DNA of 64,000 bases from an uncultured Chloroflexia bacterium (GTDB lineage Bacteria > Chloroflexota > Limnocylindria > Limnocylindrales > CSP1-4): the NCBI GenBank assembly GCA_963759495.1, contig CAVWZL010000003.1, positions 43,234 to 107,233 on the forward strand, given 5' to 3'. Positions within the stretch are counted from its first letter, which is position 1. Each line of letters opens with the position of its first letter. The position numbers and the translations under genes were made by a program. Positions 361 to 57,893 of the stretch are shown piece after piece. The notes below the pieces were generated by a model that saw only the letters and a program-made list of their open reading frames with translations, searched no databases and was not told where the DNA came from.

Positions 361-2083
361 TCAGGTGGGGTCGGCGAGGTGGCGCAGCGCGGCAAACGTG
401 GCCCGAACCTCGGCCGCCGTCGATGCATCCAGCGCGCCGCGCGCCGCATCCCTGAGCGTGGCGGCAGCTGATCCCCGGATCGCGCGACGGACGGGGGCCA
501 GGCTCGAGTCGGCCATGCTCAGCACCGTCACGCCGAGTCCCACCAGCGCGAGCGCGGCGACGGGATCACCGGCCATCTCGCCGCAGACGGAGAGCTCGAC
601 GCCGGCCGCCTCGGCATCGGCCGCGGCTGATGCGATCAATCGAAGCATCGCGGGATGGAGCGAATCCCGGTAGCGCTCGAGCGACGGGTTGCCGCGGTCT
701 GCGGCGAGCGTGTACTGGAGCAGGTCGTTCGTGCCAAGGCTCGCGAACCGCAGTCTGCGCGAAGAACGTCCGGGCGACGAGCACCGCTGACGGGATCTCG
801 AGCATGACCCCCAGGTCCACGTCGCCGTGGGGCACCCCGGCGGCCGCCAGACCGGCCCGAGCTTGCTCCACGAGGTCGAGCAGGATCGCGACATCGGCGG
901 CGTCGGCGACCATCGGTGCCATCACCTTGACCCGCCCGGTCACGGCCGCACGCATCGCGGCCCGGAGCTGCGTGACGAAGATGGCGGGCTGCTCGGGCGC
1001 GAGCCGCAGCGCGCGAACGCCGAGGAACGGGTTTGCCTCGGGCGGAATGGGCAGATAGGGGATCGGCTTGTCGCCACCGACGTCAAGCAGCCGGATCGTC
1101 ACCGGCCCGGGTGCAAAGGCCTCGACGACGGCCTGGTTCGCGGCCGTCTGCTCATCCTCGGTGGGCGGTGACGAGCGTTCGACGAACAGGAACTCGGTTC
1201 GGAACAGGCCCACGCCACGCGCCCCGCGCGCGACGGCCCGCGCGGCCTCCGCCGGCGTGCCGATATTGGCCAGCAGCGTCACCTCGACCCCGTCCCGCGT
1301 GACGCAGTCCAGCCCCGCCTCCGCGAGCGCGACCTCGGCTGCGGCGACGGCCGCCCGCCGTCGACCTTCGAGTCGCTCGCCGGCCGCCTCGTCGGGCTCG
1401 AAGACGACCTCCCCAGTGCCGCCGTCGATGACGAGATCCGCGCCGGCGGTCCCATCCGTACCGTGAAGGAGCCCGCGGACCCCGACGACCGCGGGGATCC
1501 CGAAGGCGCGGGCGAGGATGGCGGCGTGCGAGGTCGCCGACCCGGCCTCGAGCGCGAGCCCGAGCAACCGGTCCCGCGGCAGCCCGGCGGCAAGTGACGG
1601 CGGGATGTCCTCCGCGACAACAATGGCGGGCCCGTCGAGCGTCACGGCACGCTCGAGACCCGCAAGCCGGTAGGCGATCCGCTCGGCGACATCGAGGACG
1701 TCCTCGGCCCGCGCGGCGAGCAGCTCGTCACCGAGTGCGCGCAGCTGGTCTGCAACGGCAGCCGCGGCCATCCGGATCGCGCCGATGGCATCGTGTCCAT
1801 CGCGGATCGCCTGGGTCGCGGCGTCGAGCAGCGAGGGATCCTGGGCCATTGCGGCCTGGGCATCGAAGATCTCGCCCTCCGCCGCACCGGTCGCGGTGAG
1901 CTGGGAGGCCAGCGCCTCGAGCTCGGCCGCGGCCTCGTCCCGTGCTTCGATCAGGCGTTCGACCTCCGCGTCGGCGGCCTCGGGCGCTATCCGGCCGCCG
2001 ACCGGGGCCTGCGAGGAGCCGAGCCGAACCCACGGGCCGCGCGCGACGCCCGTCGATGCGGGCACGCCCCGCAGCGCGCGCAT
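361..2083 (-). CDS. ptsI: phosphoenolpyruvate-protein phosphotransferase (PTS enzyme I), with an apparent frameshift near 750-770
   Basis: ORF 566..2083 carries the EI N-terminal, phosphohistidine (GSATSHAAILARAFGIPAVVG) and PEP-utilising (GLFRTEFLF, IRLLDVGGDKP, MLEIPSAV) motifs. The EI C-terminus (SLGTNDLLQYTLAADRGN...SVCGEMAGDP) continues in ORF 361..894 in another frame. Confidence 0.8.
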
Positions 2084-2088
2084 GGAGC

Positions 2089-2670
2089 TCAGGCGGGCGT
2101 GGTCGAGGCGGGGAGTGCCTCGAACCGGATCTCGGCGTCGAACGGGTCCTCTCCCGCGATGTAGGCCGGCTCGGGGAGCATGCCGTAGCCCCCGATCGCA
2201 TCAGTCCAGCGCAGCCCCTTGCACGTCGCCGTACCGCGCATGCCCTTCGCATCGGCCGTCTCGATCGTGACGATGCAGCGCGACGGGTCGTAGGTGGTCC
2301 AGTGCTGCCCGCCCGACACGCGGTCGAGCGTCACGAAGGCGCTGCTCCCGAACACGCTCCCCGTCGCGATGCCGGACACGCGCAGATACCAGCCGTCGCC
2401 ACTCGAGAATGTCGCCTCGCCGCCAAGCCACTCGTCCCCGTACATCGCGGCGCTGCCGAGCTCGCCCAGGGTCATCTCGGCGTCGTCCCCGATCGTCACC
2501 CCGGCGCTTCCCTCGATGAACGTCGCGATGGGCGCGGGCGGGAAGTCCCCGGGATCGGTCATGTCGTAGCCGTAGAGGTATTCGCAGCCGGCGAGGGCGA
2601 CGACGACCGCGCCGAGCGCGAGGCTCAGGCCCGCAGCCCGGCTCGCGCGAGCCGAACCGCCCCGGGCCAT
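2089..2670 (-). CDS. lipoprotein of unknown function
   Basis: Signal peptide with lipobox LAGC. The gene sits immediately upstream of ptsI on the same strand. Confidence 0.55.
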   Translation of the reverse strand: MARGGSARASRAAGLSLALGAVVVALAGCEYLYGYDMTDPGDFPPAPIATFIEGSAGVTIGDDAEMTLGELGSAAMYGDEWLGGEATFSSGDGWYLRVSGIATGSVFGSSAFVTLDRVSGGQHWTTYDPSRCIVTIETADAKGMRGTATCKGLRWTDAIGGYGMLPEPAYIAGEDPFDAEIRFEALPASTTPA

Positions 2671-2671
2671 C

Positions 2672-3610: not shown

Positions 3611-3654
3611 GCGTTGCTCAGGGACGCGTGAACGGCGTCATTGGTTGCGGCCGC

Positions 3655-4131: not shown

Positions 4132-4182
4132 GTCGTCCGCATCGTACCAGCCAGTGTCGCGGATCGGCGTCCGGGTGAGGGG

Positions 4183-4799: not shown

Positions 4800-7757
4800 C
4801 TATTGTGCGCTGATCCGCTCCGCCAGCGTCCCGAGCATGGCCATCGCGGCCTCTGGTCGCTCGGTGAGGATCGCGCGGAGGCCCTCGCCCCCGATGACGA
4901 GGCCACGGACCGGCGTCTCGGCAATGACCGTCGCCGCGCGGGGCCGGTCGCGCAGGACTGCGAGCTCGCCGATGTGGTCGCCCGCCTCATACGTTCGGAG
5001 CAGGCGCTCCGTGTCGCCCTCGGTGCGGACGACCCGGACACGACCGTCGACCAGCACGATCAGCTCGTCGCCGCTGTCGCCTTCGCGCACGAGCGCCTCG
5101 TCCTGCCCGTAGAGCCGTTCCGTGGCGGTCGCGGCGAGTCGTTGCAGGTCCTCGGGGTCCAGCTGGCTGAAGAGGGGTACGCCGCGCAGGAACAGCATGC
5201 GATCGAGCTCGCCAAGCGTCCCATCGGTATCCGCCATGGTCGGTCCTCCGTTGTGCTGCATGGGGCCAAGCCTGGAGCGGACGGCCGGATCGGGGTCGTT
5301 GCCGGCCCGCGCCGCGAGTGCGGCCTGCTGTCGCGCGAGCGCCTCCGCGCCGGCGCGAATCGCGATCGTCCGAAGCCACGGATCCGGGTCGTCCATGAGC
5401 TCGTGCACGGCGGCGTCCGCTGGCGCGCCGGCGCGCGAGCCGTCGCTGTCGAGCAGCCCCACGATCCCCTGGGCCAGCCGCCGGTCACCCAGCGCATCGA
5501 TTGCCTCGATCGCCTGGGCACGCGTGTCGGGATCGGGCGAGCGCAGACACCGACGCAGCAAGCCTGACGCCTGGGGCGCACCAAGCGCTGCAACCGCAGT
5601 CATCAGCTGGTCCTCGATTCGGCGACCGCGTCGATCGACCACGACGCGCAGGAACGCGAGCGCAGGGTCGTTGGCCCCGTCGCCGAGCGCGGTCGCGTGC
5701 CGTCGAAGCGCGCTCGCGCGCTCGACGCGTCCCAGCGCCCAGGTCCGGATCGGCCCGCGGCTCGTGGCGCCGGCACCGGCCAGTGCGAGGACGGCAGCTT
5801 CCTGCGCGCGCTCCGAGCCACGACCCAGGATCTCGACGAGTGCCTGGGTCGCCGTTCCGTGGCGTGCGATGGCGGCGGCTGCCGCGCGACGGACGGTGCC
5901 GGCATCGTCGTCGAGCGCGGCGAGCAACGCCTCGGTGGCCGCCTCGCCGGCCGGAAGAGCGCCCAGGGCGCGTGCGGCGGCAGCACGAATGCGCGCATCC
6001 GGATCACCGAGTGCGGCAGTGAGGGTCGCAGCCGGGGCCAGGTCCCCGAGACGGCCCGCAACGTCGAGGCCCGCGAGGCGCGTGGTGACGTCGCTCCCTC
6101 CCAACAGCTCGTCGAGTGCCGTGCGCGCACCGTTCGTGTCGCCCGACGCGGCGAGTGCGGCGACCCGCTCTGCTCGCACAGCGGGATTCGACTCCGCGGC
6201 GAGACGTTCGGCTGCTGCACCGGCCCTGCCTGGATCGAGCGTGGCGATCGCACGCAGCGCGGCGGCGCGGACCTCGGGGTCGTCATCGGCCAGGCGTTCC
6301 GCCAGGGCATCGGTCGCGTCCCGACTGCCCAGGCGCCCGAGCAGGTCGGCAGCAAGCCGGCGCGTGCCGGCCGCCGGATCGCGAAGGGCCGCCGCGAGCT
6401 CGTCCGACACCCCGGGCGCCCGTCCGAGTGCCTGGAGGCCGGCGCCGCCTTCGAGGACCTGCTCTGCGAGGCCGGCCCGCAGCGTTCGGACGAGCGCCTC
6501 GCCGTACCGCCGGCGGATCCGAGCCACGACCCAGGTCAGGGCGAGGGCCGTCAGCAGCCCCATGAGGAAGATCGGTGCCTGGGTCGCGCTGAACAGCGCC
6601 GTCGCGACGAGCAGGAGCACCCCGGAGAGGCTGATCCCGAGCTGTCCGGGCACGCCATCGATGAACGCCAGCACCTGCGGCCGCCGGTCCGACGGCACGA
6701 CCGTGAACATGGCGCTCCAGGCCGCGTTCGAGAGGCTCCGTTGCGCGACCTGCTGCACGACGACGAACCCGACCGCCGTCGCGAACGTGAATTGGACGAG
6801 CCACGTCGCAAAGCCGAGGAGGTAGACCACGGGCAGGATCAGTGCCGCCGTCGCGACCCCGAACCGGGCGTACACCCGGTTGGCGAGCGCGAGGGACACG
6901 AAGAACGACACGGCCGTGACCCCGGCCTGGATGAGTCCGACGGTCGTCGCGAGACCGGCTTCGTCGCCCTCGAATGCGCGCTGCAGGGCGCCCTGGTACG
7001 GGAACGTGACCGAGAACAAGAGGACGGAGAACAGGACGTACCCCACGGCGACGAGGCGAAGGAGCGGAGAGGCGCGGACGTCGTCGAAGCCGCGCCGGAG
7101 CTGTGCCCGGAGCGACACCCGACTCGGGGCCCTGCCGGCTCCCCGTTCCGTGCCTGCTGGGCTGCCCGGTCGGGCGCCGACGATCCGCGCGACGAGGGCC
7201 ACGGCCGCCACCAGCAGCACGGCATCGAGCACGATGAGGTTCTCGGTCCCAAGCACGGAGGCGAGCGGACCCGATGCGAGGGTCCCGACGAAGCTGCCCG
7301 CGATCGCCGCGCTCGTGCACAGCGGGAAGAGGCGCTTGGCCTGGCGCACGTCGAGCGTCGTTCCTGCCACCGTCCAGACCACCGTGAGCAGCAGGGCGTT
7401 CACGACGTTGACGACGACCCAGAGCAGTCCGTAGACGGCGACGGTGTCCGCGACGGCCGCCACCCGGAGCACGATCAGCGTGCCGGCAAAAGCCACGAGC
7501 AGCCCGACGAAGAACGGACGTCGCGGAACTCGCCCGATCGCGGTCCCGTAGCCGAGCGCGACGACCAGGCTCACGAGCCCGAGCGCGATGAACAGCCAGG
7601 GAAGGGAGGCCGCTCCGACGCGGTTGAGGAAGAGCGTCGTGACGGCCACATCGCCCAGCCCGCGACCGGCCTCGATCGTGGCGAAGAGCGCGGCGAGCAG
7701 TCCGACGAGGCGTCCCTCGCCGGCGCGGACCGCGAGCAGGCCCGCGCCGAGCCTCAC
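4800..7757 (-). CDS. 12-TM MFS/TLC-like transporter fused to HEAT (PBS-lyase type) repeats and a C-terminal cyclic-nucleotide-binding domain
   Basis: 985-aa intact ORF. The N-terminal ~440 aa is polytopic membrane. The middle carries repeated PDPAVRAAALRAL-type HEAT motifs. The C-terminus is a cNMP-binding fold (LFLRGVPLFSQLD...GDELIVLVDGRVRV...GDHIGELAVL...RAATVIA). Its GTG start overlaps the stop of the upstream cyclase gene (GTGA). Confidence 0.8.
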   Translation of the reverse strand: MRLGAGLLAVRAGEGRLVGLLAALFATIEAGRGLGDVAVTTLFLNRVGAASLPWLFIALGLVSLVVALGYGTAIGRVPRRPFFVGLLVAFAGTLIVLRVAAVADTVAVYGLLWVVVNVVNALLLTVVWTVAGTTLDVRQAKRLFPLCTSAAIAGSFVGTLASGPLASVLGTENLIVLDAVLLVAAVALVARIVGARPGSPAGTERGAGRAPSRVSLRAQLRRGFDDVRASPLLRLVAVGYVLFSVLLFSVTFPYQGALQRAFEGDEAGLATTVGLIQAGVTAVSFFVSLALANRVYARFGVATAALILPVVYLLGFATWLVQFTFATAVGFVVVQQVAQRSLSNAAWSAMFTVVPSDRRPQVLAFIDGVPGQLGISLSGVLLLVATALFSATQAPIFLMGLLTALALTWVVARIRRRYGEALVRTLRAGLAEQVLEGGAGLQALGRAPGVSDELAAALRDPAAGTRRLAADLLGRLGSRDATDALAERLADDDPEVRAAALRAIATLDPGRAGAAAERLAAESNPAVRAERVAALAASGDTNGARTALDELLGGSDVTTRLAGLDVAGRLGDLAPAATLTAALGDPDARIRAAAARALGALPAGEAATEALLAALDDDAGTVRRAAAAAIARHGTATQALVEILGRGSERAQEAAVLALAGAGATSRGPIRTWALGRVERASALRRHATALGDGANDPALAFLRVVVDRRGRRIEDQLMTAVAALGAPQASGLLRRCLRSPDPDTRAQAIEAIDALGDRRLAQGIVGLLDSDGSRAGAPADAAVHELMDDPDPWLRTIAIRAGAEALARQQAALAARAGNDPDPAVRSRLGPMQHNGGPTMADTDGTLGELDRMLFLRGVPLFSQLDPEDLQRLAATATERLYGQDEALVREGDSGDELIVLVDGRVRVVRTEGDTERLLRTYEAGDHIGELAVLRDRPRAATVIAETPVRGLVIGGEGLRAILTERPEAAMAMLGTLAERISAQ

Positions 7758-10447
7758 CCGGGGGAGCCGTCCGGGACGGCCACGTCCACGATTGCCGGAA
7801 GCTCCCCGCGCGCTCGGACGTCCTCGAGGAACGCGAGCACCTCGGGTATCGACATCTCCGCCCCGCGGGCCCGGGCGCCGGCGAGCTCGGGGCCTGCAAG
7901 TGCGGCATCAAGCTGCGCGGCCGAGAAGCCGACCTGTAGCCAGCTTTCGACGTCGAGCGGCGGCCGGTACCCGAGCCGGCGTGCGTGCGCCACATAGGCG
8001 CCCATCGCGACTGCCGCCTCGTCCAGCTTTCCGGTAAACAGGAGCAGCATCGCGCCTGCGCGGAGTCCAAGCGTCGCCGATGCCGTGTCGCCCATGCGGT
8101 CCTGCAGGTGCAGGCCTCGAAGGCCACGGGCAAAGGCGTCGGCGAGCTTGCCTTCGGCCACGTCGATACCCGCAAGCCCGGTGGCCGCGAGCGCGACATA
8201 GAAGTCATCGCCGTTGCGCTCGAAGCGGCCGAGGGACGTTTCGACGATCTCGCGCGCCCCTGCGAAGTCGCCGGCCGCCATGTGGACGTAGCCCATGATC
8301 CAGTGGAGCCTCGCGAGTGAGCGCTCCTCGCCCAGCTCGAGGTACAGACGGCGCGCCTCGTCGCGAAGGGCGATGAGCTCCATCTCGGGCCCGTCCGGCC
8401 GGAACTGCGTGTGCATGTAGTTGAAGAGCGCGTCCGCGATCGCCCTGGGGTCTCCGACCGCTCGAGCAATCCGTACCTGCTGCGCGTAGTGGGCGTCGGC
8501 ACCAGGCACGTCTCCCGCCCACCAGCGCAGACCGCCAGCTGCGTCGTGCGCACGGGCGCGCCAGAGGGTCGGCGGATCGGCACCAGGCATCTCCAGGACG
8601 CGGGACGTTGTCGCCCACCCCTCGGCCATCCGCCCGCGGAACTGCCAGTAGCGCCACAGCGCGGCGACGAACCGGTGTGCTGTCTCGGCGTCGCCTGTCT
8701 CGATGGCCCAGTCGATCGCCGCGGTCGTGTTCGCGTGCTCGGCGGTGAGCCGGTCGAGCCATGGGACCTGACCTGTTCCCGGCATGTGGCGGGCCGCCTC
8801 CTCGGCGAGCTCGAGGTAGGTCGCTGCGTGACGGGCGCGGACAGCCTCTGCTTCGCCCAGCTCGGCCAGCCGGGCGCTCGCAAACATGCGGATGGTCTCG
8901 AGCAACCGGAAGCGCGGGCCGACGGCTGCGGGAACGGCCTGGACCAGGCTTTGGTCGACGAGGACGGACAGGCCGTCGATCGCCTCGACACCCGGTTCGA
9001 GGGCTGCACCGGCAACGGCCTCGATCTCGTCGAGCTGCGCCCCACCTGCAAAGACCGACAGGCGGGCAATCAGCCGCTGCTCGGACGGCTCGAGCAGGTC
9101 GTGGCTCCAGCCGATCGTGGCATCGAGCGTTCGCTGTCGTTCGGGCAGATCGCGCGAGCCGGTGCCGGGCAGGTCCAGCCGGCCGGCCAGTCGGGTGGCG
9201 ATCGTCGCCGTGCCCAGCAGCCCAAGGCGAGCCGCCGCCAGCTCGATCCCGAGCGGCAGGCCGTCGAGCCGCCGGCAGATCTCGGTGATGGCCTGGAGCT
9301 CGTCGATCCCGGGCTCGAAGCCGGGCCGCACGCGCCCGGCGCGCTCGACGAACAGACGAACGGCGTCCGCACCACCCGCGTCCTTGTCAGCAGCGGACTC
9401 CGGCATCGCCAGCGGCCGCACGGCGACTTCCTGCTCCATCGAGAGGCGGAGCGGCGCCCGGCTCGTGACCAGCAGCGACAGTCGTGGCGCCGCGCGCGAG
9501 CAGGCCCGTGAGGATCGGGGCGGCTTCGATGACCTGCTCGAAGTTGTCGAGCACGAGCAGGACGGACCGTTCGGCGAGGAACGACGTGATCCGGTCGAGC
9601 GGCGTGCTGTCGGGCGCCTCGAGCAGCGAGAAGGCTGCCGCGATCGCGCCCGGGACCAGGGCCGGATCACGGACGGTCTCGAGCGGCACGAACCACACCC
9701 CGTCATCGAAGCGGCCGGCCTGTGCGCGCGCAAGCTCGATCGCCAGGCGCGTCTTGCCGGTTCCGCCGGGGCCGGTCAGCGTGACGAGACGGTGGGACGC
9801 AAGCAGGCTGGCAGCCTCGCTCAGCTCGCGCTCGCGCCCGATGAAGCTCGTCAGGGGCACGGGCAGGTTGCCGCGCGCCGCCTGACCGCTTCGGATTGCG
9901 GGGAACTCGGCGGGCAGGCCCGGGATGACGAGCTGGTGGAGGTGCTCGGGCCGCCGAGGTCCCGCAGGCGGTGCTCGCCCAGCGATCGCGTCTGCACTGT
10001 GGGCGGAAGCCCGTCCTCGACGAGGGCACGCGTCGCGTCGGAGAGCAGCACCTGCCCCCCGTGGGCGAGCCCCGCGATGCGCGCTGCCCGATGAACATCG
10101 ACGCCCACGTAGTCGTCGCCTCCGAGCGTGCCAAGGCCCGTATGGAGGCCCATCCGGACGCGGATCGGTTGGGCGATCGGCCATGCGGCGGCTGCAAGCC
10201 CGCGTTGCGCATCGACGGCTGCGGCCACGGCGGCCGGTGCGTCGCGGAACAGCACGAGGAACGAGTCGCCCTGCGTGCCGCGTTCGACGCCGCCATGCCG
10301 TCCGAACGCCTCCCGAAGCACGGCGTTGTGATGGTCGAGCACGTCGGTGAAGACGGCGGGACCGACGTCCTGGACGAGGCGGGTGGAGCCCTCGATGTCC
10401 GAGAACAGGAACGTGACGGTCCCCGTCGGCAGCTCGCGAGCGGTCAT
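7754..10447 (-). CDS. class III adenylyl/guanylyl cyclase - NB-ARC (STAND) ATPase - TPR multidomain protein, with two apparent frameshifts near 9946 and 9493
   Basis: ORF 9851..10447 is a class III nucleotidyl cyclase (TVTFLFSDIEGST, RVRMGLHTG). ORF 9387..10466 continues with PEHLHQLVIPGLPAEFP and a P-loop (LTGPGGTGKTRLA). ORF 7754..9733 continues the NB-ARC (LLVTSRAPLRL) and a long TPR array. Same architecture as mycobacterial AC-ATPase-TPR proteins but with no LuxR HTH at the C-terminus. Confidence 0.75.
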
Positions 10448-17090: not shown

Positions 17091-17093
17091 TTG

Positions 17094-18979: not shown

Positions 18980-20352
18980 GTGAAGACGACGATGGCGGTG
19001 ATCCTCGCGGGCGGCGAGGGCGAGCGGCTCTCGATCCTGTCGCAGAAGCGCGCCAAGCCCGCGGTGCCGTTTGGCGGCAAGTACCGGATCATCGACTTCA
19101 CGCTGTCGAACTGCGTCAACTCCGATATCACGAACGTCGTCGTCCTGACCCAGTACAACCCGCGGTCGCTCAATGACCACATCGGGCTCGGCCGGCCATG
19201 GGACCTCGACCGCAACTACGGCGGCGTAAAGCTGCGCCAGCCGTATATCGCCCGCGGCCGGGTTGCCGAGTGGTACCGCGGGACCGCGGACGCCGTGCTC
19301 CAGAACCTGAGCGAGCTCGAGCACAGCGACGCGGACACGATCCTCGTGCTGGCCGGTGACCACATCTACAAGATGGACTACCAGCCGTTCGTCCAGGCGC
19401 ACCGACGCCGCCGGGCCGATGTCACGATCGCCGTCCGACGCGTCCCCCTGGCCGATGCCTCTCGAATGGGCGTCCTCGCCCTGGACGACAGCGATCGCGT
19501 CATCGAGTGGCAGGAGAAGCCGAAGCAGCCGAAGAGCGACCTCGCGTCGATGGGCGTCTACGTCTTCTCCAAGAAGGCCCTGCGGAAGTGGCTCAGCGAC
19601 GACCTCGCCGACTTCGGGCGTCACGTCATCCCGGCGATGCTCGATGGGGGCGCGCGCGTCTTCGGCTACCACTTCGATGGCTATTGGCAGGACGTCGGGA
19701 CGATCCAGTCCTACTGGGAATCGAACATGGCGCTGCTGACCGACGCGCCCGAGTTCGACCTGTACGACACCGACTGGGTCATCCACACCCGGTCGGAGGA
19801 GCGCGCGCCGGCCAAGATCGGGCCAACCGCACAGGTGCACCGCAGCCTGATCAGCCACGGCTGCCAGATCAACGGGACGGTCGTGAACTCCGTCCTGTCG
19901 CCGGGCGTCCGCGTCGAGAGGGCGCCGTCGTGCGCGACTCGATCATCATGTTCGACTGCGTCATCGGTGCCAGCGCGGTCGTCGACCGGGCGATCCTCGA
20001 CAAGGAGGTCGTCGTGGGCCAGGGAGCCATCGTCGGCGACGGACCCGATTTCGATCGCCCCAACAAGAAGGAGCCGAACCGGCTCAACACCGGGATCACG
20101 GTGGTCGGCAAGCGGGCCGTGATCCCGCGCGGCGCCCGGCTGGGGCGCAACGTGAAGATTGCCGCCGACGCCAGGGCCGTCGACTTCACGAGCCGAATCG
20201 TCAAGTCGGGCGAGTCGGTCGAGATCCGCGATCCGGTCCGGCGCCAGGCCGTCGACCTTGACGGGGCGTCGGCGGGAACGGCGACCGCAACGCCCCCGGC
20301 CGGTACCGCGGCGGGTGGCGGCGGCGGCAAGCGGGCCGATCCCGAGCCCTGA
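18980..20352 (+). CDS. glgC: glucose-1-phosphate adenylyltransferase, with an apparent frameshift near 19918 (GAGAGGG)
   Basis: [43 protein letters not shown]. The C-terminal beta-helix ([26 protein letters not shown]...[14 protein letters not shown]) continues in ORF 19507..20352. AGGGAG Shine-Dalgarno before the GTG at 18980. Confidence 0.8.
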
Positions 20353-25407: not shown

Positions 25408-26549
<1,142 letters not shown>

Positions 26550-28017: not shown

Positions 28018-30376
<2,359 letters not shown>

Positions 30377-35353: not shown

Positions 35354-36734
35354 GTGATCCGTCGTCGGCTCCTGAGCGCGCTCCAGTTCTTTCCACGCGG
35401 AGGCTCGTCGCACGTCGCCCGGGCGCTCGCCGGCGAGCTGCCGGCGCACGGCTGGGACGTGACTGTGCTCTCTGGCTCACGCACGGACCTCGGGGACTTC
35501 TGGTGACGCGAGGCGCTTCTACGGGGGGCTCGATGTCCATCCCGTGTCGTTCGACGAGGCGCTCACCGCACCGGACCCGCTCAATCCGCCGCCCGGCCTC
35601 GCACCGATCCAGCCGTCCTACGAGGACCGGTCCGGCGCTCCGGATCGGGTATTCGCCGTGCTGGACGACCTTGCCTATGAGCGCCAGGTAGCGGCCTGGG
35701 CGGGCGCGCTGGCAGCCGTGGGCGCTGCCGGATACGACGCGCTGCACCTGCACCATCTGACGCCCATCCACGAGGCGGCGTCCCGAGTCGCGCGGGGCGT
35801 ACCGGTCATCGGGCACCTGCACGGCACCGAGCTCCTGATGCTCGAAGCGATCGCGGCCGGTCCGCCGTCGAGCTGGACGCACGCCGACGCATGGGCTGAG
35901 CGGATGCGTCGCTGGGCGCACGGGTGCCAGCGGCTCATCCTGTCCTCGCCCACGCAGATGACGCGGGCCCAGGGCCTGCTCGGGATCGAAGCGGACCGGC
36001 TGGTCGTTCTGCCCAACGGGTTCGACCCGCGCCTGTTCGTGGGAAACGACGTCGATCGCGCGGCGCTGTTCCGTCGCGCGCTCGTCGAGGCACCGCGGGG
36101 CTGGCATGGCGACCAGCACCCGGGCAGCGTCCAGTACCGGAGTGATGAGCTCATGCCCCTCGTCGACGGCGTCGTCGTTGTCACGGTGAGCCGGTTCACT
36201 GCGGTCAAGCGGCTCCCCGTGCTCATCGAGGCATTCGCGCGGGCACGAAACCGCGCGCGGGCACCAGCCGGCCTGGTCATCGTGGGCGGCCATCCGGGCG
36301 AGTGGGAGGGCGAGCACCCAGCCGACACGATCGCTCGCCTCGGAGCGCGTGACGTCTTCCTTGCCGGCTGGTACGACCACGACGAGGTCCCGCACTTCCT
36401 GTCCGCCGCCGACGTGTTCGCCCTTGCGTCGGTGCGCGAGCAATTCGGCCTGGTCCTGGTCGAGGCGATGGCGTGCGGGGTCCCGCCAGTCGCGGTGGAT
36501 CGGTTTGGACCCGCGGAGATCGTGGCCGACGGCGAAACCGGCTGGCTCGTGGAACCGGACGACGTGGGCGGGCTCTCGGCGGCGCTGCTCCATGCGATCG
36601 ATGACCCAGCCGAGCGAGCCCGTCGCGGCGCTCGGGCGCGAACCGTCGCCATCGACCGCTATGGGTGGCCACGTCTCGCCGAGCGGCTTGCCCGCTTGCT
36701 GAATGCGGTCGTCGTCGACACCCCGGCGCGGTAA
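35354..36734 (+). CDS. glycosyltransferase family 4 (GT-B fold), with an apparent frameshift near 35500
   Basis: N-terminal GT4 motif (FFPRGGSSHVARALAGELPAHGWDVTVL) lies in ORF 35009..35506. The C-terminal EQFGLVLVEAMACGVPPVA motif lies in ORF 35544..36734. Confidence 0.7.
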
Positions 36735-36887: not shown

Positions 36888-36963
36888 TGGGGTGGCCTAT
36901 GGGGCTCGAACCCATAACCTTCGGAGCCACAATCCGATGCTCTGCCATTGAGCTAAGGCCACC
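36888..36963 (-). tRNA. tRNA-His (anticodon GTG) with genomically encoded G-1 and 3' CCA
   Basis: Cloverleaf: G-1, acceptor GTGGCCT/AGGCCAC, D-arm AGCTCAATGGCAGAGC, anticodon stem-loop TCGGA-TTGTGGC-TCCGA, T-arm ATGGG-TTCGAGC-CCCAT, discriminator C, CCA. Confidence 0.85.
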
Positions 36964-37116
36964 ACGGTGCCAGCGGCGATCGCGCTCGGCGATCCGGCCA
37001 CGGGGCGACCGGAGTGTACCGGAAACCGAGGACAGCAACGCAGACGAACCCTCGTGGCGCGGGCGACCACGGCGCGGCGGAGCGGTACGATCGCGGCCAC
37101 GACGAATGTTGGAGGA

Positions 37117-37520
37117 ATGAGGATGACGGTGGACGCGCCGGCCATGACCGAGGAGCGGCTCCAGGTCTTCTTCGACGCGTGGAACGCGCACGACGTCGAG
37201 ACGATCGTCTCCTGCTTCACCGACGACGGGGCGTACCTCGCGTCGATCGGGCCCGAGGACGCGGGGACGGCGTTCCGCGGGCGCGAGGAGGTCCGTCGTG
37301 GCGTCACCGCCTTCCTGGGCACGTACCGCGGCGCGCACTACACCGACACGACGGTGCTCGGAGGGGCGACCGCGGCCACGCAACGTGGACCTTCCACGGA
37401 ACGCTCGCCGACGGCCGCCGTGTCGTCTACCGCGGCGTTGACGTCTTCCGGTTCGTCGGTGACCACATCGCCCTCAAGGACGCGTACCGGAAGGAACGCT
37501 CCGCGCCAATTGGCGCTTGA
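37117..37520 (+). CDS. SnoaL-like / NTF2-like domain protein, with an apparent frameshift near 37375
   Basis: N-terminal FFDAWNAHDVETIVSCFTDDGAY in ORF 36967..38097. C-terminal TWTFHGTLADGRRVVYRGVDVFRFVGDHIALKDAY in ORF 37014..37520. GGAGGA Shine-Dalgarno. Confidence 0.6.
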
Positions 37521-37542
37521 TGTCCCGCACGAGGCCCGACCG

Positions 37543-38097
37543 ATGACCGATCCGAACCAGACGCCGCTGACCGGGATGCGCGTCGGTGTCCTTTTGGCCG
37601 AGGGCGTCGAGGACCTGGAGTACTGGGTCACCGTCATGCGACTCCGCGAAGCCGGCGCGACCGTGGAGTCGATCGGCACGACGCTCGAGCCGGTCCGCGG
37701 GAAGAACGGGCTCGAGGCCCGTGCAGATCGGCTCGCGGCCGATGTGGACCGCTCCAGCTACGACGGTCTCGTCATTCCCGGGGGCTGGGCACCGGACAAG
37801 CTCCGGCGGTACGAAGCCATGACCGGTCTCGTGCGCGAGGTTCACGAGGCCGGCAAGCCGATCGGGATCATCTGCCACGGCGGCCTCGTTGCGATCTCGG
37901 CGGGGATCATCGAGCAGGGCCGGCCCGCCACGGGCTCGCTTGGCATCAAGGACGACCTCGTCAACGCGGGAGCGCGATGGGTCGACGAGCCGGCGTTCCG
38001 CGACGGCACGCTCGTGTGGGGCCGCGTCGTCGAGGACATCCCGGATTTCGAGCGCGAGCTCGTGGCCTCCTTCGCGGACCATCGCGCGGGTCGCTGA
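37543..38097 (+). CDS. DJ-1/PfpI family protein (type 1 glutamine amidotransferase-like)
   Basis: Nucleophile elbow IGIICHGG with LVIPGGW. Confidence 0.75.
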   Translation: MTDPNQTPLTGMRVGVLLAEGVEDLEYWVTVMRLREAGATVESIGTTLEPVRGKNGLEARADRLAADVDRSSYDGLVIPGGWAPDKLRRYEAMTGLVREVHEAGKPIGIICHGGLVAISAGIIEQGRPATGSLGIKDDLVNAGARWVDEPAFRDGTLVWGRVVEDIPDFERELVASFADHRAGR

Positions 38098-38250
38098 CCC
38101 AGAGGACGCGGAATCGGGATGACGGCGGACCGGTACCTCGGTTCCTGCGTGCCGGGACCACCGGTCGGCTGACCCGACCGGACCCTCTCCCTACGGTGGG
38201 AACTGCACCGGACGCCCTGCCGGTGGACTGCAGCAGGACCCACCGACCGC

Positions 38251-38961
38251 ATGTCGCCCGCGCCCTTCCTTCCCGGTCTCTCGTCCCGGTCGCGCCCGGC
38301 TCGACGCCTGTCCCTGCTGCTCGTGCTCGCACTCGCGATCGGCTCGGGCGGGTCGCTCGTCACCGCCGCGCCGGTCGGGGCGTGGGACGGCGGCGCGCCG
38401 AGCACCCCCTCCGAAACAACGCTCGCAGACCTGACCAACGGCAGCCGGGCGCGCGAGCGTCTGCCCGCGCTCCACAGCGATCCGGCCCTCGTCGCCTTCG
38501 CCCGGGAGCGCAGCCGCGACATGGCCGAGCGCGACTACTTCAGCCATGAGATGCCGGCGACCGGCGCGATGGTGTTCGACACGATGACCGCCAAGGGCTA
38601 CTGCTACGTGCTCGCGGGCGAGAACATCGGGTGGCTCGGGGGCAGGGACGCCGGCGCCGAGGCGCGCGTCCACGAGATGTTCCTGCAGTCGCCGACGCAC
38701 CGAACTGTGCTCCTGGGAAGGACCTGGGACGCGATCGGCGTCGGCACCTTCAAGCGGACCGACGGTCGCAAGTTCTGGACCGTGCTGTTCGCCGAGCGCT
38801 GTGACGAGACCAAGGTCGCCGCGGCGACAACCGGTGCCGAGACGCCGCCGCCAACACGGACCGCCACCGAGTCCCAGCCCGACATCCTCGAATCGCTGAT
38901 CGGTGGCGTGGCCGGGCTCCTTGCCGGGATGCCGCTCATGTGGGTCGCTCGACCCGCCTGA
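38251..38961 (+). CDS. secreted CAP-domain (SCP/YkwD-like) protein
   Basis: Signal peptide. DYFSHEMP...GENIGWLGG...HRTVLLGRTWDAIGVG CAP signature blocks. Confidence 0.7.
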   Translation: MSPAPFLPGLSSRSRPARRLSLLLVLALAIGSGGSLVTAAPVGAWDGGAPSTPSETTLADLTNGSRARERLPALHSDPALVAFARERSRDMAERDYFSHEMPATGAMVFDTMTAKGYCYVLAGENIGWLGGRDAGAEARVHEMFLQSPTHRTVLLGRTWDAIGVGTFKRTDGRKFWTVLFAERCDETKVAAATTGAETPPPTRTATESQPDILESLIGGVAGLLAGMPLMWVARPA

Positions 38962-41962: not shown

Positions 41963-43340
41963 ATGACCGAGGCCCTGATCGGCGCGATCCGGACGCAGCT
42001 ACCCGAGCTGCGGCTGCTCACCGATCCGACCGACCGGGAGTCATACCGCAGCGACGAGACCGCGTACCTGGTCACCGGGCTGCCGTGCGGTGTGGCGCTG
42101 CCGACCGAGACGCGCCAGGTCGCCGAGCTGGTTCGACTGGCGGGGGAGTTTCGGGTGCCGATCGTGCCCCGCGGGGCGGGGACCGGTCTGTCGGGTGGCG
42201 CGGCAGGAATCGAGGGCGGGCTGACGATCGCGTTCACCGCGATGGATCGGATCCTCGAGATCGACGCCGACAACCTGGTCGTGGTCACCCAGCCCGGGAT
42301 CATCAACGCCGCGCTGAAGGCCGCCGTTGCCGCGCAGGGCCTGTTCTACGCCCCGGACCCCGCCAGCTACGAGATCTGCTCGATCGGCGGCAACCTGGGC
42401 ACGAACGCGGGCGGGCTGTGCTGCATCAAGTACGGCCAGACGCGGGAATCGGTGCTGGGTCTCGAGGTCGTGATGGCCGACGGAACGGTCCTCCGGACGG
42501 GCGGCAAGAACGTCAAGGACGTGGCGGGCTATTCGCTGACCCACCTGATGGTCGGGAGCCAGGGGACGCTCGGGCTCATCACCGAGGCGATCCTGCGGCT
42601 GCGGCCGACCCCACCACCGCGCCTGACCCTGCTGGCCTTCTTTGAGCGTTTGGAGGCGTCGGGCGACGCGGTGGCGGGGATCGCCCAGGCCGGTCTGTCA
42701 CCGGTCACCCTCGAGCTCCTCGATGCGTTCACGATCGCGGCTGTCGACGAGGTGTACGACCTCGGCCTGGACCGTGAGGCGGCCGCGATGCTCATGATCG
42801 AATCGGACCTGCCCGGGGATGCCGCCCGCGGCGGAGATGGACGCCGCCCGGATCGTGTGCGAGGCGGCCGGTGCCACGAGCGTCGTCCTTGCCGCCGATG
42901 CCCAGGAGGCCGACTGGCTGCGCCAGGCCCGACGCGGGGCGTTCCACGCGCTGGAGCGGCTCGGGACGGTGCGGATGGAGGACGTCGGGGTGCCCCGTTC
43001 CCGGGTGCCCGAGCTGCTCGTCGCGATCGCCGGGATCGCCGAGGGCTACGGGGTCCGCTGCGGGACGTTCGGCCATGCGGGGGACGGCAACCTGCATCCG
43101 AACTTCGTGTTCGACCATGACGACCCCGACGCGGAACGGATCACCGAGGCCGCCCGCGGCGACCTGTACCGGGCGGCGATCGCGCTGGGTGGCACGATCA
43201 CCGGGGAGCACGGCGTCGGCCTCGCGCGACGGGCGTATCTCGAGGCGCAACGAGGCCCCAATGCCGTCCGGGTGATGCGCCAGATCAAGGACGCGCTCGA
43301 TCCCCTCGGGATCCTCAACCCGGGTCGCGTGCTGGTTTGA
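41963..43340 (+). CDS. FAD-linked oxidase (GlcD / D-lactate dehydrogenase family), with an apparent frameshift near 42830
   Basis: FAD-binding PCMH domain (VPRGAGTGLSGGA) in ORF 41963..43120. C-terminal domain (CGTFGHAGDGNLHPN...GEHGVGL) in ORF 42819..43340. Confidence 0.8.
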
Positions 43341-51428: not shown

Positions 51429-53028
51429 GTGAGTGACGTCGTGGACATCGTCATCCGGGGCGGCACGGTCGTGGACGGGACCGGAGCCGCCGGCAGGCCC
51501 GCGACCGTCCTCGTGGAGGGGGACGCCATCAGGCTCATCCCGGCCGGCGTGGAACCGCCACCTGCGGGACGGACCATCGATGCCACGGGACGGGTCGTGG
51601 CGCCCGGGTTCATCGACCTGCACAGCCACGGCGGCCTCGAGATCCTGGCCAACCCGCGTCACGAGCCCAAGGTGCGCCAGGGCGTGACCACGGAGGTCGT
51701 CGGCGTGGACGGGCTGAGCTTCGCACCGATCCCGAACCGGGAGGATCTCGACGCGCTGATCGAGATGGACGCCGGTCTCGATGGCGATCCGCCGATCGCG
51801 CATGACTGGGATTCGGTCGCGAGCCTCCTTGTGCGCTACGACGGCGGCATCGCCGTAAACGTGGCGACGCTCATCGGCAACTCAGCGCTCAGGATCGCAA
51901 CCATGGGCTGGAGCGACGACGAAGTCGGGCCCGACGAGCTGAACCGCATGCGCACGTACCTGCGGGAAGGGATCGAGGAGGGCGCGGTCGGCCTGAGCAG
52001 CGGCCTCGACTACCCGCCCGGCAGCTACGCGGCCACGGAGGAGCTCGCCGCGCTCACCCAGGAGGCGGGCAGGGCCGGCGGCTTCTACCACACCCACGTC
52101 CGGTACACGCTCGGTGACCGCTACATGGACCCGTTTCTCGAGGCGATCGAGATCGGCCGGAGAGCCGGAGCACCAGCGCACATCACGCACTTCTATCACC
52201 GCCAGACGCACCCGGGCGGCCCCGAGCCGCTGCTGGCGCTTGTCGACGACGCCCGTGGCGAGGGGCTCGACGTGACGTTCGATACCTACCCCTATGAGTG
52301 GGCCAGCACGAGGCTCCTCATCCAGCTTCCCGGGCTGGATCCAGGACGGCGGCCCAGGCCCGCTCAAGGAACGACTCGCCGACACCACAGCGAGGGACAG
52401 GCTTCGCCGGGAGCTCCGCGAGCGCGGTGCCGCCTACACGAGCCCCGCCGGCTGGGCCGACGTCCGGCTCGGTGCCTTTCGATCGCCGGCCAACCTGCAC
52501 TGGGAGGCACACACGGTTGCCGACCTGATGCAGGCGACGGGGAAGGACGCCGTCGACGTGATCTGCGACCTGCTCCTCGCCGAGAGCCTGCGGGTCAACC
52601 AGGTCACGAGCGGACCCTGGGCGGAGACGCTGCGCCCCTTCGTCCAGCATCCGGTCGGCATGGTGGGCACGGACTCAACGTTCGTCGGGGCCAAGCCCAG
52701 CCCGCGAACCTACGGATCGTTCCCGCGGATCCTCGGCCAGTTCGTGCGCGACGAGGCGCTGCTCAGCCTGGAGGAGGCCGTGCGCAAGATGACCTCCGCG
52801 CCCGCCGCGCGGCTCGGACTCGAGCGCAGGGGAACGCTGCGGGACGGGGCGATCGCGGACATCGTGATCTTCGATCCGGCGACGGTCCGGGCGACCGCCA
52901 CGTACGACGAGCCGCGCTCCTACCCGGTCGGGATCGAGACCGTGATCGTGAACGGCGTCCTCGTCGTCGACGAGGGCACCCACACCGGCGCGCTTCCCGG
53001 GCGCGGCATCAGGAAGGGCCGGGACTAG
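51429..53028 (+). CDS. N-acyl-D-amino-acid deacylase (D-aminoacylase) family amidohydrolase, with an apparent frameshift near 52335
   Basis: N-terminal IVIRGGTVVDGTG...GFIDLHSHG in ORF 50925..53825. C-terminal domain in ORF 52294..53028. The extra C sits in CCCGGGCTGG. Confidence 0.75.
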
Positions 53029-53813: not shown

Positions 53814-54063
53814 GGTCCGGGATGACTCCAGGAAAAAAAGGAAGGAAGAAACGGGCCAGGGACGCGATGTCGAGGCCCGACTATACGGACGGGACGTTGG
53901 AACGGGACCGTTTCCCATCGTCCTCGGACCACTTCCCGGTGACCCACGTCACCACGCGGCACGGTTCGGTGGCGTCCGGGCCGGATGAGTGCGCGCGGAC
54001 GCCGGAACCTCCGTGACGGCTCTCCCGGGTGATACCCTCTCGCGCCAAGGAGAGTGCCGCCGA

Positions 54064-56556
54064 GTGTCCACGGTACCGCGTCCCGCACCCGGTCCGCTCG
54101 TCGTTCCAACGGGTGCCGTCATCCCGGGTCGAGCCGAGCGTCGGGGACCCCTTCGCCGTGAGGGTCCAGAGAAGCTGACCGGCGCCGCGCTGTACACCGA
54201 CGACCTCGTGTTTCCCGGTGCCTGGTACGGCGCGACGATCCGATCGAGCGACGCCCACGCGCGCCTGATCGCGTTCGATCGGGACGAGGCCTTCGACTGG
54301 GGACAGGTCGTGCTCGTGACGGCCGCCGACATCCCGGGTGACAACATCGTGTCGCTCATCAGCGACGACCAGCCTGTCCTCGTCCCGATCGGCGGCGAGA
54401 TCCAGCATCACGCCGAGCCGCTCGCGCTGATCGCGGCGCCCGACCGGGCGACGCTCCGTGCGGCCCGGCACGCGATCACGGCCCGAACCGAGCCGCTGCC
54501 GCCCGTCTTCGACCCGCTCGCGAGCGAGCACGTCTTCGCCCACTACGAGATCGCGTCGGGCAATCTGGACGACGGCTTCGCCGAGGCCGATCTCGTCCTC
54601 GAGGGCACGTACCGGGTCGGGCACCAGGAGCAGCTCTACATCGAGAACAACGCGATGATCGCGGTGCCCGAGGAGCACGGCGGCATCACCGTCCACGGCT
54701 CGCTCCAGTGCCCGTACTACGTCCACAAGGCGATGAAGCGGGCGCTCGCGCTCGACGACATCCAGACGCGCGTGATCCAGGCCGAGACCGGGGGTGGGTT
54801 TGGCGGCAAGGAGGAGTACCCCTCGATCCTCGCGATCCACGCCGCGCTCCTTGCCCGCGCCTGCCGAAAGCCCGTCCGGATGATCTACGACCGGCACGAG
54901 GACATCTCGGCGACGACGAAGCGTCACCCGGCGGTCGTGACCCACCGAACCGGGATCCGTCGCGACGGCACGCTCGTGGCGCAGGACATCGACGTGGTCA
55001 TGGACGGTGGCGCGTACTCGACGCTCACGCCGGTCGTGCTCTCACGTGGCGCGCTCCATGCCGGCGGGCCGTACCGCTGCCCGAATGTTCGGATTCGCGC
55101 GCGGGCGACCCGCACGAACACGCCGCCCAACGGCGCGTTTCGCGGGTTTGGCGCGCCACAGACCGAGTTCGCCGCCGAGATCCAGCTGAACCGCCTGGCC
55201 GAGGCGATCGGCCGGAGCCCGCTCGACGTGCGGCGACAGAACGTGTACGTCCCGGGGGACACGACCCCGACGGGGCAGGTGCTGCGCGAGAGCGTCGCGG
55301 GCGAGGAGGTCCTGGAACGAGCCGTCGAAGCGGCCGAGTTCGAGCGCCTGCGCCAGCGCTTCGCGGCAGAACGCACTGCCCTCGAGCCCGCCGTGACCAA
55401 CGGCAAGGACGGCTCGCTTCGCTCGGGCGCGCGCCAGCGTGCGTCGGGGATCGGGCTGGCGCTGGCCTGGCATGGGGCCGGATTCACGGGCTCGGGTGAG
55501 GTGAAGCTCGCATCGGTTGCGTCGGTCGAGCTGACCGGGGACGGCCGGATCTCGATCCTCACCGGCTCGACCGAGATGGGCCAGGGCACCAAGACGATCT
55601 TCCCGCAGCTCGTCGCCGACGCCCTCGGCGTGCCGTACGAGGATGTCGAGATTGCCCCGCAGGACACCGCCTACGTACCGGATTCGGGGCCGACGGTGGC
55701 GTCGCGCACGGCGATGGTCGTCGGCGGGCTCGTGATCCACGCCGCGCGCCGGCTCCGGGAGACGGTCGAGACGGCGACAGGTCGGGCATTCGTTGACGCC
55801 TACCGGGAGTACGCCCAGGCCAACGGCCCGCTGCGGATCGACCAGCGCTTCGAGCCGTACCCCGGCATCCACTTCGACGATCAGACGTATCGCGGCGATG
55901 CCTATCCCGCATTCGGCTGGGCGGCCTGCGTCGCCCAGGTCGAGGTCGATCTCGACACGGGCGAGGTGGCGGTGAAGGACGTCGTCGCCGCCGACGACAT
56001 CGGCAAGGTGATCCACCCGGTGCTCGCCGAGGGACAGGTCGAGGGCGGCACGCTGCAGGCCGTCGGGTACGCGACGATCGAGGAGATGAAGCTGCGCGAC
56101 GGCCGGTATCTCAACGACCGGCTCGCCACCTACCTGATCCCGACGGCCCTCGATGCACCGCGCATCTCCACGATCCTCGTCGAGTCGCCGTTTCCGAGCG
56201 CGCCGCACCTTGCCAAGGGAGTAGGGGAGCTGCCGATGGACGTCGGGGCGCCCGCCGTCATCGCCGCGATCCACGACGCGACCGGCGTCTGGATCCACGA
56301 GCTGCCCGCCACGCCCGAACGCATTCTCGCGGCGCTCCATGCCGTTGCGCCGCCGCCCGAGACCGGCCGGCCGGGCGTGGCGCCGCAGCCCGGGCGGGCC
56401 GGCCCGGCCACGACCGATGCGGCGGTCGATGCGCCAATCGGGGCCGGCACGGATCCGCGACCCGATGCGCCGACCGACCCATTGCCCCTCCGCGGCGTCC
56501 AGCCCGATGGCGACATCCCGACCGGTGCCGAGCCCGACGACGGAACGTCCGCATGA
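54064..56556 (+). CDS. xanthine dehydrogenase / aldehyde oxidoreductase family molybdopterin-binding subunit
   Basis: Aldehyde-oxidase/xanthine-dehydrogenase a/b-hammerhead and MoCo-binding domains (GGGFGGKEEY, GFRGFGAPQ, TEMGQGT). Start uncertain (GTG at 54064 after an AAGGAG Shine-Dalgarno, or ATG at 53989). Pro/Ala/Asp-rich ~70-aa C-terminal tail. Confidence 0.8.
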   Translation: MSTVPRPAPGPLVVPTGAVIPGRAERRGPLRREGPEKLTGAALYTDDLVFPGAWYGATIRSSDAHARLIAFDRDEAFDWGQVVLVTAADIPGDNIVSLISDDQPVLVPIGGEIQHHAEPLALIAAPDRATLRAARHAITARTEPLPPVFDPLASEHVFAHYEIASGNLDDGFAEADLVLEGTYRVGHQEQLYIENNAMIAVPEEHGGITVHGSLQCPYYVHKAMKRALALDDIQTRVIQAETGGGFGGKEEYPSILAIHAALLARACRKPVRMIYDRHEDISATTKRHPAVVTHRTGIRRDGTLVAQDIDVVMDGGAYSTLTPVVLSRGALHAGGPYRCPNVRIRARATRTNTPPNGAFRGFGAPQTEFAAEIQLNRLAEAIGRSPLDVRRQNVYVPGDTTPTGQVLRESVAGEEVLERAVEAAEFERLRQRFAAERTALEPAVTNGKDGSLRSGARQRASGIGLALAWHGAGFTGSGEVKLASVASVELTGDGRISILTGSTEMGQGTKTIFPQLVADALGVPYEDVEIAPQDTAYVPDSGPTVASRTAMVVGGLVIHAARRLRETVETATGRAFVDAYREYAQANGPLRIDQRFEPYPGIHFDDQTYRGDAYPAFGWAACVAQVEVDLDTGEVAVKDVVAADDIGKVIHPVLAEGQVEGGTLQAVGYATIEEMKLRDGRYLNDRLATYLIPTALDAPRISTILVESPFPSAPHLAKGVGELPMDVGAPAVIAAIHDATGVWIHELPATPERILAALHAVAPPPETGRPGVAPQPGRAGPATTDAAVDAPIGAGTDPRPDAPTDPLPLRGVQPDGDIPTGAEPDDGTSA

Positions 56557-57038
56557 CGGCCTACCGGTTTGCGGTCAACGGGGCCGAGGTCGAGGTCGAG
56601 GCCCCCGGCATGCGGCGGCTGCTCGACGTGCTGCGCGAGGAGCTGGCGCTGACCGGCACGAAGGAGGGCTGCGGCGAAGGCGAGTGCGGCGCCTGCACGG
56701 TGCTCCTCGACGGTGCCGTCGTCGACGCATGTCTGGTGCCCGTCTGCCAGGCGGACGGCTCGGACGTCCGGACGGTCGAAGGGCTGGCCGGCTCTCCGGT
56801 CGTGCCAGGCGGTCCGCCGCGTCTCGATGCTCTCCAGGCCGCGTTCCTCGAAGCCGGTGGCGCGCAGTGCGGGATCTGCACCCCCGGCATGCTCATGTCG
56901 GCACGCGCCTACCTCGATGCCGGCGGAGGCCCCGACGAGGACGCGATCCGCGAGGCCATCGCGGGCAATCTGTGCCGCTGCACCGGCTACACGAAGATCA
57001 TCGAGGCCATTGCGCATGCCGCCGAAGGTGCAGCGTGA
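56553..57038 (+). CDS. (2Fe-2S)-binding small subunit of xanthine dehydrogenase family enzyme
   Basis: CGEGECGACTV and CGICTPGM ... CRCTGY cysteine clusters. ATGA overlap. Confidence 0.85.
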   Translation: MTAYRFAVNGAEVEVEAPGMRRLLDVLREELALTGTKEGCGEGECGACTVLLDGAVVDACLVPVCQADGSDVRTVEGLAGSPVVPGGPPRLDALQAAFLEAGGAQCGICTPGMLMSARAYLDAGGGPDEDAIREAIAGNLCRCTGYTKIIEAIAHAAEGAA

Positions 57039-57893
57039 GCATCGAGCCGCCGGTGGTCACCGCCCGGTCCCTCGCCGAGGCATATGCCGTCCTCGGCGAG
57101 GCGCCACATCGGCCGATTGCGGGCGGCACGGACGTGATGGTGCAGCTCAACGGCGAGCTCGGGGAGCCTCCTGCGCGGATGGTCGACCTCTGGCGGCTCG
57201 ACGAGCTGCGCGGGATCCGGCAGCGTCGATGACGCCATCGAGCTCGGTGCCCTCACGACCTATACCGACATCCGCCAATCGGCGCTGTGTCGCGAGCATC
57301 TGCCGGCGCTCGTCGATGCCGCGGCAACCATCGGCGCGGCCCAGATCCAGAACCGGGGTACGCTCGGCGGCAACGCGATGAACGCCTCCCCGGCCGGCGA
57401 CACGCTCCCGGTCCTGCTCGCGACCGATGCCGTCCTCGTGGCCGGCTCGCTGCGCGGCGAGCGGTCCATCCCCGTCACCGACTTCTGGGTCGCCTACCGT
57501 CGCACGGCCCTCGAGCCCGATGAGCTGCTGCTGCGGATTCGGATTCCGCTCGTGCCGGACCGTGAGCTTCGGTTTCGCAAGATCGGGACGCGCCGCGCGC
57601 AGGCGATCAGCAAGGTGGTCATGTGCCTCGCATGGCGCTCCACCGGCGAGGAAGGTCCGTGGTCCGATGTTCGGCTCGCCCTCGGCTCCGTGGCGGACCG
57701 TCCCGTGCGTGCCATGGCGACCGAGGCCGTCCTCGAGGGGGCGCGGGCGGACGCCCGGACGGCCGATGCGGCGGCGGAGACCCTGGCCGGCGAGCTGAAT
57801 CCGATCGATGACGTGCGGTCCACCGCCGACTACCGGCGGACCGTCGCCGCACGAGTGCTGCACCGACTTGTCCGCGATGCGGGAGGATGGTGA
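57035..57893 (+). CDS. FAD-binding (CoxM/XdhB-like) subunit of xanthine dehydrogenase family enzyme, with an apparent frameshift near 57220
   Basis: PIAGGTDVMVQLN in ORF 56339..57232. The continuation (IELGALTT...NRGTLGGNAMNASPAGD...) is in ORF 57378..57893. GTGA overlap with the FeS subunit gene. Confidence 0.75.

Follow-up and report, generated by a model that had tools for sequence, protein, structure and literature searches.

The stretch of DNA analysed here (64,000 nucleotides, hereafter the window) belongs to contig CAVWZL010000003.1 of an uncultured Chloroflexia bacterium (assembly GCA_963759495.1, positions 43,234 to 107,233 of the forward strand). Positions are given as those of the whole stretch, which has 71% G+C throughout and in which frame scoring by the GC content of third codon positions (GC3) gives a strong signal on about 55-60 open reading frames (ORFs). 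The nearest relatives of the GlgC, cyclase, CopA and PtsI proteins of the window are uncultured Chloroflexota of the Limnocylindria/Limnocylindrales group, with a top identity of 85% for GlgC among species-representative genomes, and the gene order of the region of about 10.7-26.6 kb is kept in twelve Limnocylindrales loci. Nine genes of the window are interrupted by ten frame breaks, two of which lie in the cyclase gene. These breaks are very probably single-base consensus errors of the deposited assembly, the real genes of the organism being intact.

At every place named in a preliminary description of this DNA, the coding signal switches to another frame of the same strand and persists in the new frame beyond the break. 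In a three-frame reading, a recognisable protein carries on in the other frame past the breaks. The Pfam profiles are divided between two frames with contiguous profile coordinates, and intact homologues match the window as pairs of tblastn alignments that lie in different frames and have contiguous query coordinates. A whole-window tblastn scan with every collected homologue (these cover about 38 kb) placed junctions at 758, 9494, 9950, 19919, 28435, 35496, 42824, 52329 and 57219. The break in a SnoaL-like gene rests on Pfam, on the alignment with PDB 9iq5 and on the near-identical sequence L165 described below. No further well-supported junction appeared across the 38 kb covered by homologues, and in the Pfam scans the remaining ORFs had complete domains, with neither in-frame stops nor additional split domains. 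All ten disruptions claimed in the preliminary description are thus present by GC3 scoring, split profiles and paired matches, and its coordinates, refined here by homologue comparison, were correct to about 15 nucleotides (nt). As it also held, each break is a change of one base. A single-base edit per site (two edits for the cyclase gene) gives a full-length ORF that is colinear with its homologues at 10/10 sites. Seven breaks correspond to one extra base and three to one missing base, with a density of roughly one per 6 kb. Each indel was narrowed by relatives to the interval in which it must fall.

The ptsI gene (361-2083, minus strand) contains one extra base within CAGACTG (751..757). 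The repaired protein has 573 amino acids (aa) and reads FFAQ followed across the junction by LRFASLGTNDL, and its relatives have FFD(R/Q)I-RFASLG at the break. The Pfam profile PEP-utilizers_C is divided into 12-194 and 195-290. The homologue P0246 (77-83% identical) matches with residues 1-446 in frame -1 and 445-569 in frame -2; altogether, 54 homologues are split at this break and none spans it. The adenylate cyclase-STAND-TPR gene (7754-10447, minus strand) is the longest of the broken genes, and its cyclase, AAA_16 and TPR domains fall in three pieces. Site 1 (9945..9958) lacks one base within CTCGG^CGGCCC^GAG. There, relatives favour the reading DLG-RPEHLHQL, with R preceding E(R/H)LHQL in 10/10 aligned homologues and RP in eight. 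Site 2 (9488..9497) has one base too many in the GC dinucleotide repeat GCGCGCGGCG and reads LLA(R/A)APRLSLLVTSR in the alignment with ten intact homologues of about 895 aa, with 102 split sources. The cyclase homologues P0001-P0120 are intact at this same length, and P0001 matches the window with query residues 5-168 in frame -1, 169-324 in frame -3 and 322-888 in frame -1.

The remaining breaks are on the plus strand. In glgC (18992-20352), one base is missing between GTCGA and GAGGGC (19917..19918), and a DNA alignment with 11 Limnocylindrales loci contains exactly one gap in the window. At this point 10/11 relatives have an Asp codon (GAC/GAT), of which the window lacks the third base. The position that had been proposed for this break is right, but the proposed restoration to GAGGAG (VEEG) is not, as 10/11 relatives give GA(C/T)GAG (V-D-E-G). 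The Pfam profile Hexapep_GlmU is divided into 13-46 and 45-104, and the break splits the matches of 12/12 relatives. GlgC is intact in 11/12 of the Limnocylindrales loci, the other one (L011) being broken elsewhere in the gene. The gene of a copA-type P1B ATPase (28018-30376) contains one extra base within CTTCTTC (28432..28438), which puts the HMA domain and the E1-E2 ATPase into different frames. The repaired protein reads APDLPA-LFTDPVFQ and the relatives LPA-(I/F)(F/L)(T/N/S)(D/N)P, and homologue P0242 (86-89% identical) matches with residues 1-140 in frame 1 and 139-772 in frame 2.

In the GT4 glycosyltransferase gene (35354-36734), an extra C is placed at 35500 in TT_T, where 14 homologues read DL(E/G)xF-GDA. 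More than 100 intact homologues exist, typically of about 455-475 aa. The gene adjoins a transfer RNA (tRNA-His; 36888-36962, minus strand), and more distant GT4 orthologues (L082 and L083 were examined) occupy unrelated neighbourhoods. The SnoaL-like gene (37123-37520) lacks one T between G and G (37361..37362). Its Pfam profile SnoaL_2 is divided into 4-70 and 50-100, and the alignment of PDB 9iq5 with the repaired protein is ungapped at the break and gapped elsewhere.

The glcD-like FAD-linked oxidase gene (41963-43340) carries one extra base in 42821..42830, most simply a C in GCCGCCCGCG. The repaired protein reads LPGDAA followed past the junction by AAEMDAARIV. The Pfam profile FAD-oxidase_C is divided into 2-70 and 83-248, and the matches of the intact relatives P0363, P0364, P0366 and P0427, which read LPGxAA-xxE(L/I/M)D at equal length, are split at 42813-42829. 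These relatives agree with the extra C noted previously in GCCGCCCGCGG. The gene of a D-aminoacylase-like amidohydrolase (51438-53028) has one extra base within CCCGGGC (52329..52335) and, once repaired, reads LLIQLPGWIQDGGPGP. Around 25 metagenome homologues (65-88% identical in this segment) read LLIQLPxW(I/V)Q without gaps; the break has 31 split sources and divides Amidohydro_3 into 1-195 and 357-472. Finally, the FAD subunit gene of a Mo-hydroxylase (57035-57893) contains one extra base within CCGGCAGC (57217..57224), which divides FAD_binding_5 into 5-61 and 63-169. Seven syntenic homologues (63-70% identical) are intact and read LRGI, four further residues and DA(L/I), with seven split sources and none spanning the break.

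Two near-identical sequences allow a direct comparison. L081 is a separate ENA contig, and L165 is a Logan assembly of run ERR11593888 that was located through an exact-protein look-up with the neighbouring DJ-1. L081 is 99.7% identical to window positions 35374-36706 over 1,333 bp, with three mismatches and one gap. This sole gap is the GT4 frameshift (window ACTTCTGG, L081 ACTT-TGG). Past the site L081 remains in frame and reads TDLGDFGDARRFYGG, as fourteen homologues do, and its protein (P0121) is 98% identical to the repaired GT4. L165 is 99.4% identical to window positions 36938-38369 over 1,433 bp, with seven mismatches and one gap, and here the sole gap is the SnoaL frameshift (window CTCG-GAGGGGC, L165 CTCGTGAGGGGC). 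The SnoaL ORF of L165 is intact (132 aa), its other coding differences are mostly synonymous and leave DJ-1 unchanged at the protein level. At 2/2 comparable sites, the near-identical assembly lacks the indel. For the remaining eight sites, searches that included look-ups with CoxS, OHCU decarboxylase, a YbjN-like protein and DUF1801 (V- and M-start) found no same-species sequence. A concatenated query of seven junction segments gave best matches of 82-85% identity and no same-species match, and it helped to localise the PtsI and CopA breaks. The contigs of the GT4 relatives P0126 and P0152 are not syntenic and held nothing for the copA, SnoaL and glcD sites.

The comparison with orthologues suggested in the preliminary description was carried out, and those retrieved read the breaks in one frame. 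This holds for every homologue retrieved for the nine genes, frameshift-chimeric database entries aside, the homologues of SnoaL being L165 and PDB relatives only. Conservation continues beyond the breaks. The identity to a relative is 77% upstream and 83% downstream of the break for PtsI, and 86% and 89%, respectively, for CopA. For GlgC, the downstream identity is 67-78%, compared with 68-81% among intact relatives (the near-identical pair L001/L002 excluded). Each gene bears one lesion, the longest two; the broken genes are long, which is the pattern expected if hits are proportional to gene length. The earlier preference for sequencing or assembly error over pseudogenes is therefore upheld by the in-frame state of the 99.4-99.7% identical assemblies at both comparable sites, by the one-frame orthologues and by the lack of decay.

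On the other hand, the sequence contexts depart from what had been proposed. The changes were said to lie at G/C runs, and homopolymers of at least three bases were suggested as the check. When this was done, 4/10 intervals were found to touch a run of at least three (CCC in the glcD-like gene, CCCGGG in the aminoacylase, CCC at cyclase site 1 and GGGG in SnoaL), which equals the background, as 33-48% of random 7-13-nt intervals of the window do so. Such runs are absent from the intervals of ptsI (CAGACTG, without any run of at least two), copA, the FAD subunit and cyclase site 2. The window contains 470 runs of at least four bases, 82 of at least five and 14 of at least six, and no break occurs at any of the 82 runs of at least five. 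Neither site resolved by a near-identical sequence is a run-length change. In SnoaL the lost base is a T, and L165 has the GGGG of the interval at the same length as the window. In GT4 the extra C sits inside TT_T, and L081 and the window agree in the GGGG stretch a short way upstream. The glgC gap falls after GA and not in GGG, and this break too is probably not a run-length change. Judging from the intervals, such a change would be compatible only with the glcD-like gene (CCC), the aminoacylase (CCCGGG) and possibly cyclase site 1. The errors look context-independent, which argues against pyrosequencing or Ion-type error and fits low-coverage long-read consensus noise better. An association with the methylation motifs GGATCC/GATC was considered from three sites and dropped once the indels had been localised away from the motifs.

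In the proposed mechanism, seven surplus bases and three omissions would have arisen in the assembler or polisher, amounting to roughly one indel in 6 kb with essentially no dependence on sequence context, so that gene callers split or shorten nine otherwise normal genes. The type of assembly is most probably a Nanopore-only, lightly polished and low-coverage metagenome bin, where both platform and coverage are what we infer. Contigs of the relatives and near-identical contigs bear Flye-style names, and the platform of the window record itself is only deduced. The closest relatives of the window include metagenome-assembled genomes (MAGs) of Microflora Danica, built from Nanopore reads only, with Flye as the assembler and a single round of Medaka polishing (PMC12313526). 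Assemblies and MAGs of this kind resemble the window in having single-base indels that split conserved genes and are absent from near-identical assemblies, and likewise in that related long-read loci and contigs share the defect. An own frameshift is present in 2/6 syntenic Microflora Danica long-read MAG loci, compared with 0/6 other loci, mostly with contig names of short-read assemblers. In L003 (MFD04944.bin.2.33), a HAD hydrolase homologue is frameshifted at about 2270, as supported by six other loci, and in L011 (MFD09779.bin.2.2) glgC is frameshifted at about 10121, as supported by 11 other loci. Such breaks are therefore not unique to the window record within the MAG catalogue.

Nanopore bins below approximately 40x need polishing for the removal of frameshifts and to reach a quality like that of PacBio HiFi, whereas R10.4 data resolve homopolymers well (PMC9262707). 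For this frameshift problem, IDEEL serves as a test and proovframe as a remedy (PMC9262707, bioRxiv 10.1101/2021.08.23.457338). That R10.4 largely fixes homopolymers fits the non-homopolymer contexts of the window breaks. The classic description of R9 data, with errors concentrated in homopolymers, differs from the window, and low-coverage data of R10.4 type would fit.

Several points weigh against an origin of the breaks in the assembly. The consensus of Nanopore reads is expected to be biased towards deletions, from which the 7:3 excess of insertions in the window differs. The Microflora Danica loci contain two frameshifts in about 127 kb, so that the rate in the window is roughly ten times higher. 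The same-species comparison covers only 2/10 sites, and L081 is itself probably a long-read contig. L081 (6022-7353) shares the body of the GT4 gene alone: its flanks are unrelated and diverge abruptly at both gene ends, for which a recent transfer or recombination of the GT4 gene, or a chimeric contig, is possible. Moreover, L081 and L165 represent different strains (0.3-0.6% substitutions), so that both indels might, in principle, be true differences between strains.

This strain difference would leave room for the view that the frameshifts are genuine and very recent, either as strain-specific pseudogenes or as segregating inactivated alleles that were faithfully assembled; PTS enzyme I, glycogen synthesis, copper export and purine catabolism are also dispensable in some settings. 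That reading is nevertheless improbable. It would require the loss of nine out of about 55-60 genes through independent single indels, with neither a nonsense mutation nor a large deletion and with a second lesion in the longest gene only. PtsI, CopA and GlgC display no relaxed conservation downstream, and neither testable site is common to the 99.4-99.7% identical copy. The genes that are hit are long, as expected for length-proportional hits, and the contexts are unlike the slippage-prone repeats typical of natural indels. In reductive genomes with pseudogene accumulation, of which Mycobacterium leprae is the example, true decay brings stops, multiple lesions, deletions and relaxed constraint, shared among strains. 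The window resembles such genomes in having many interrupted genes amid intact neighbours, but none of these marks was seen in it. There is likewise only a small chance that some of the ten indels are real and the assembly faithful. If so, they would point to a natural Limnocylindria population with segregating loss-of-function alleles in PTS enzyme I, glycogen synthesis, copper export and purine catabolism.

Alternatively, a flow-based or early nanopore platform (454, Ion Torrent or R9 nanopore) might have misjudged homopolymer lengths, with G/C runs over- or under-called. In four intervals the frame would indeed be mended by lengthening or shortening a run of 3-4 nt, and pyrosequencing and Ion Torrent data resemble the window in one-base indels that give apparent frameshifts in housekeeping genes. 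However, the errors of these platforms alter run length and climb steeply with it, and the window breaks do not. The GT4, SnoaL and glgC changes lie outside runs, four sites have no run of at least three, the proportion of 4/10 is that of the background and no break is found at a run of at least five. This origin is accordingly very unlikely, and the option of pyrosequencing put forward in the preliminary description falls together with the homopolymer mechanism. Restoration of the proteins in vivo by programmed ribosomal frameshifting or transcriptional slippage is scarcely credible, since the perfect restoration of every gene by a +1 or -1 shift is matched by nothing specific otherwise, while both kinds of shift would be required, the ten contexts have no common motif, slippery heptamer or long homopolymer, and all intact orthologues retrieved, including relatives at 82-89% identity, encode the protein in one frame, so that no frameshift is conserved among them.

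Frame errors are also found in the databases. The protein P0123 (396 aa), encoded on an NCBI/ENA contig of 414,972 bp, is 100% identical to the truncated window ORF 35544..36734, its orthologues being about 458 aa long, and the GT4 frameshift appears to be present in the public record itself. The earlier warning that the ORF boundaries are unreliable is borne out by this shortened GT4 call. The 50%-identity representative protein library holds the frameshift-chimeric entries P0365, P0439 and P0458, with off-frame tails rich in Arg, Gly and Pro that give high scores with off-frame parts of a query, and L164 (ENA ERZ25039577 contig_76781, a Flye-style name) has many 1-nt gaps relative to the window. 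As these three entries, obtained with the N-terminal glcD fragment as query, follow its off-frame tail, a shared frameshift hotspot was considered. It was rejected because a query that itself carries the off-frame tail selects for such entries; the low complexity of the tails, and the 1-nt gaps with which L164, the contig of P0439, is riddled, speak against it further. Off-frame translations used as queries can therefore falsely suggest a conserved frameshift.

Some neighbouring genes have features of their own. The NUDIX hydrolase gene (24796-25410, minus strand) lacks all three usual starts (ATG, GTG and TTG) ahead of its domain, and its CTG overlaps the stop of the preceding MalK-like ABC ATPase gene (GCCTGAC, about 25404-25410). 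The missing start was considered as an eleventh error and rejected, as L001 and L002, the closest two relatives, share the CTGA arrangement and have contig names suggestive of short-read assembly. By its sequence, this arrangement looks like a conserved non-canonical start or a case of translational coupling. The cyclase-STAND-TPR gene and the adjacent gene of a 985-aa MFS-HEAT-repeat-cNMP-binding fusion (window 4800-10447) are unmatched in the syntenic loci L003, L005, L006 and L008. These four loci carry homologues of the window at 2.7-4.8 kb and at about 10.8 kb, and the arrangement suggests a lineage-specific insertion of two signalling genes. The region 53989-60854 contains amidohydrolases, followed by the large, 2Fe-2S and FAD subunits of the Mo-hydroxylase and by OHCU decarboxylase, uricase and malate synthase. 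From its predicted gene content, this is a purine-catabolism cluster. Consequently, the gene described earlier as coxM-like is more likely to encode an FAD subunit of xanthine-dehydrogenase type than one of CO dehydrogenase, and it is probably of that type.

For annotation, about one window gene in six is mis-called, i.e. split, shortened or fused to a neighbour. The N-terminal frame of SnoaL is open into the downstream DJ-1/PfpI gene, forming a frame of 381 codons (window 36952-38094, plus strand). Through the SnoaL frameshift, a gene caller could therefore report a SnoaL-DJ-1 fusion protein. Correction of homopolymers only would miss most of the errors, and polishing that is frameshift-aware and homology-guided, or based on reads, is needed. 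Calls of a pseudogene, a novel short ORF, a gene fusion or a missing pathway step made from this contig are suspect until it has been polished. For the organism, the breaks would thus be an artefact and not a biological feature, and as such of low biological interest.

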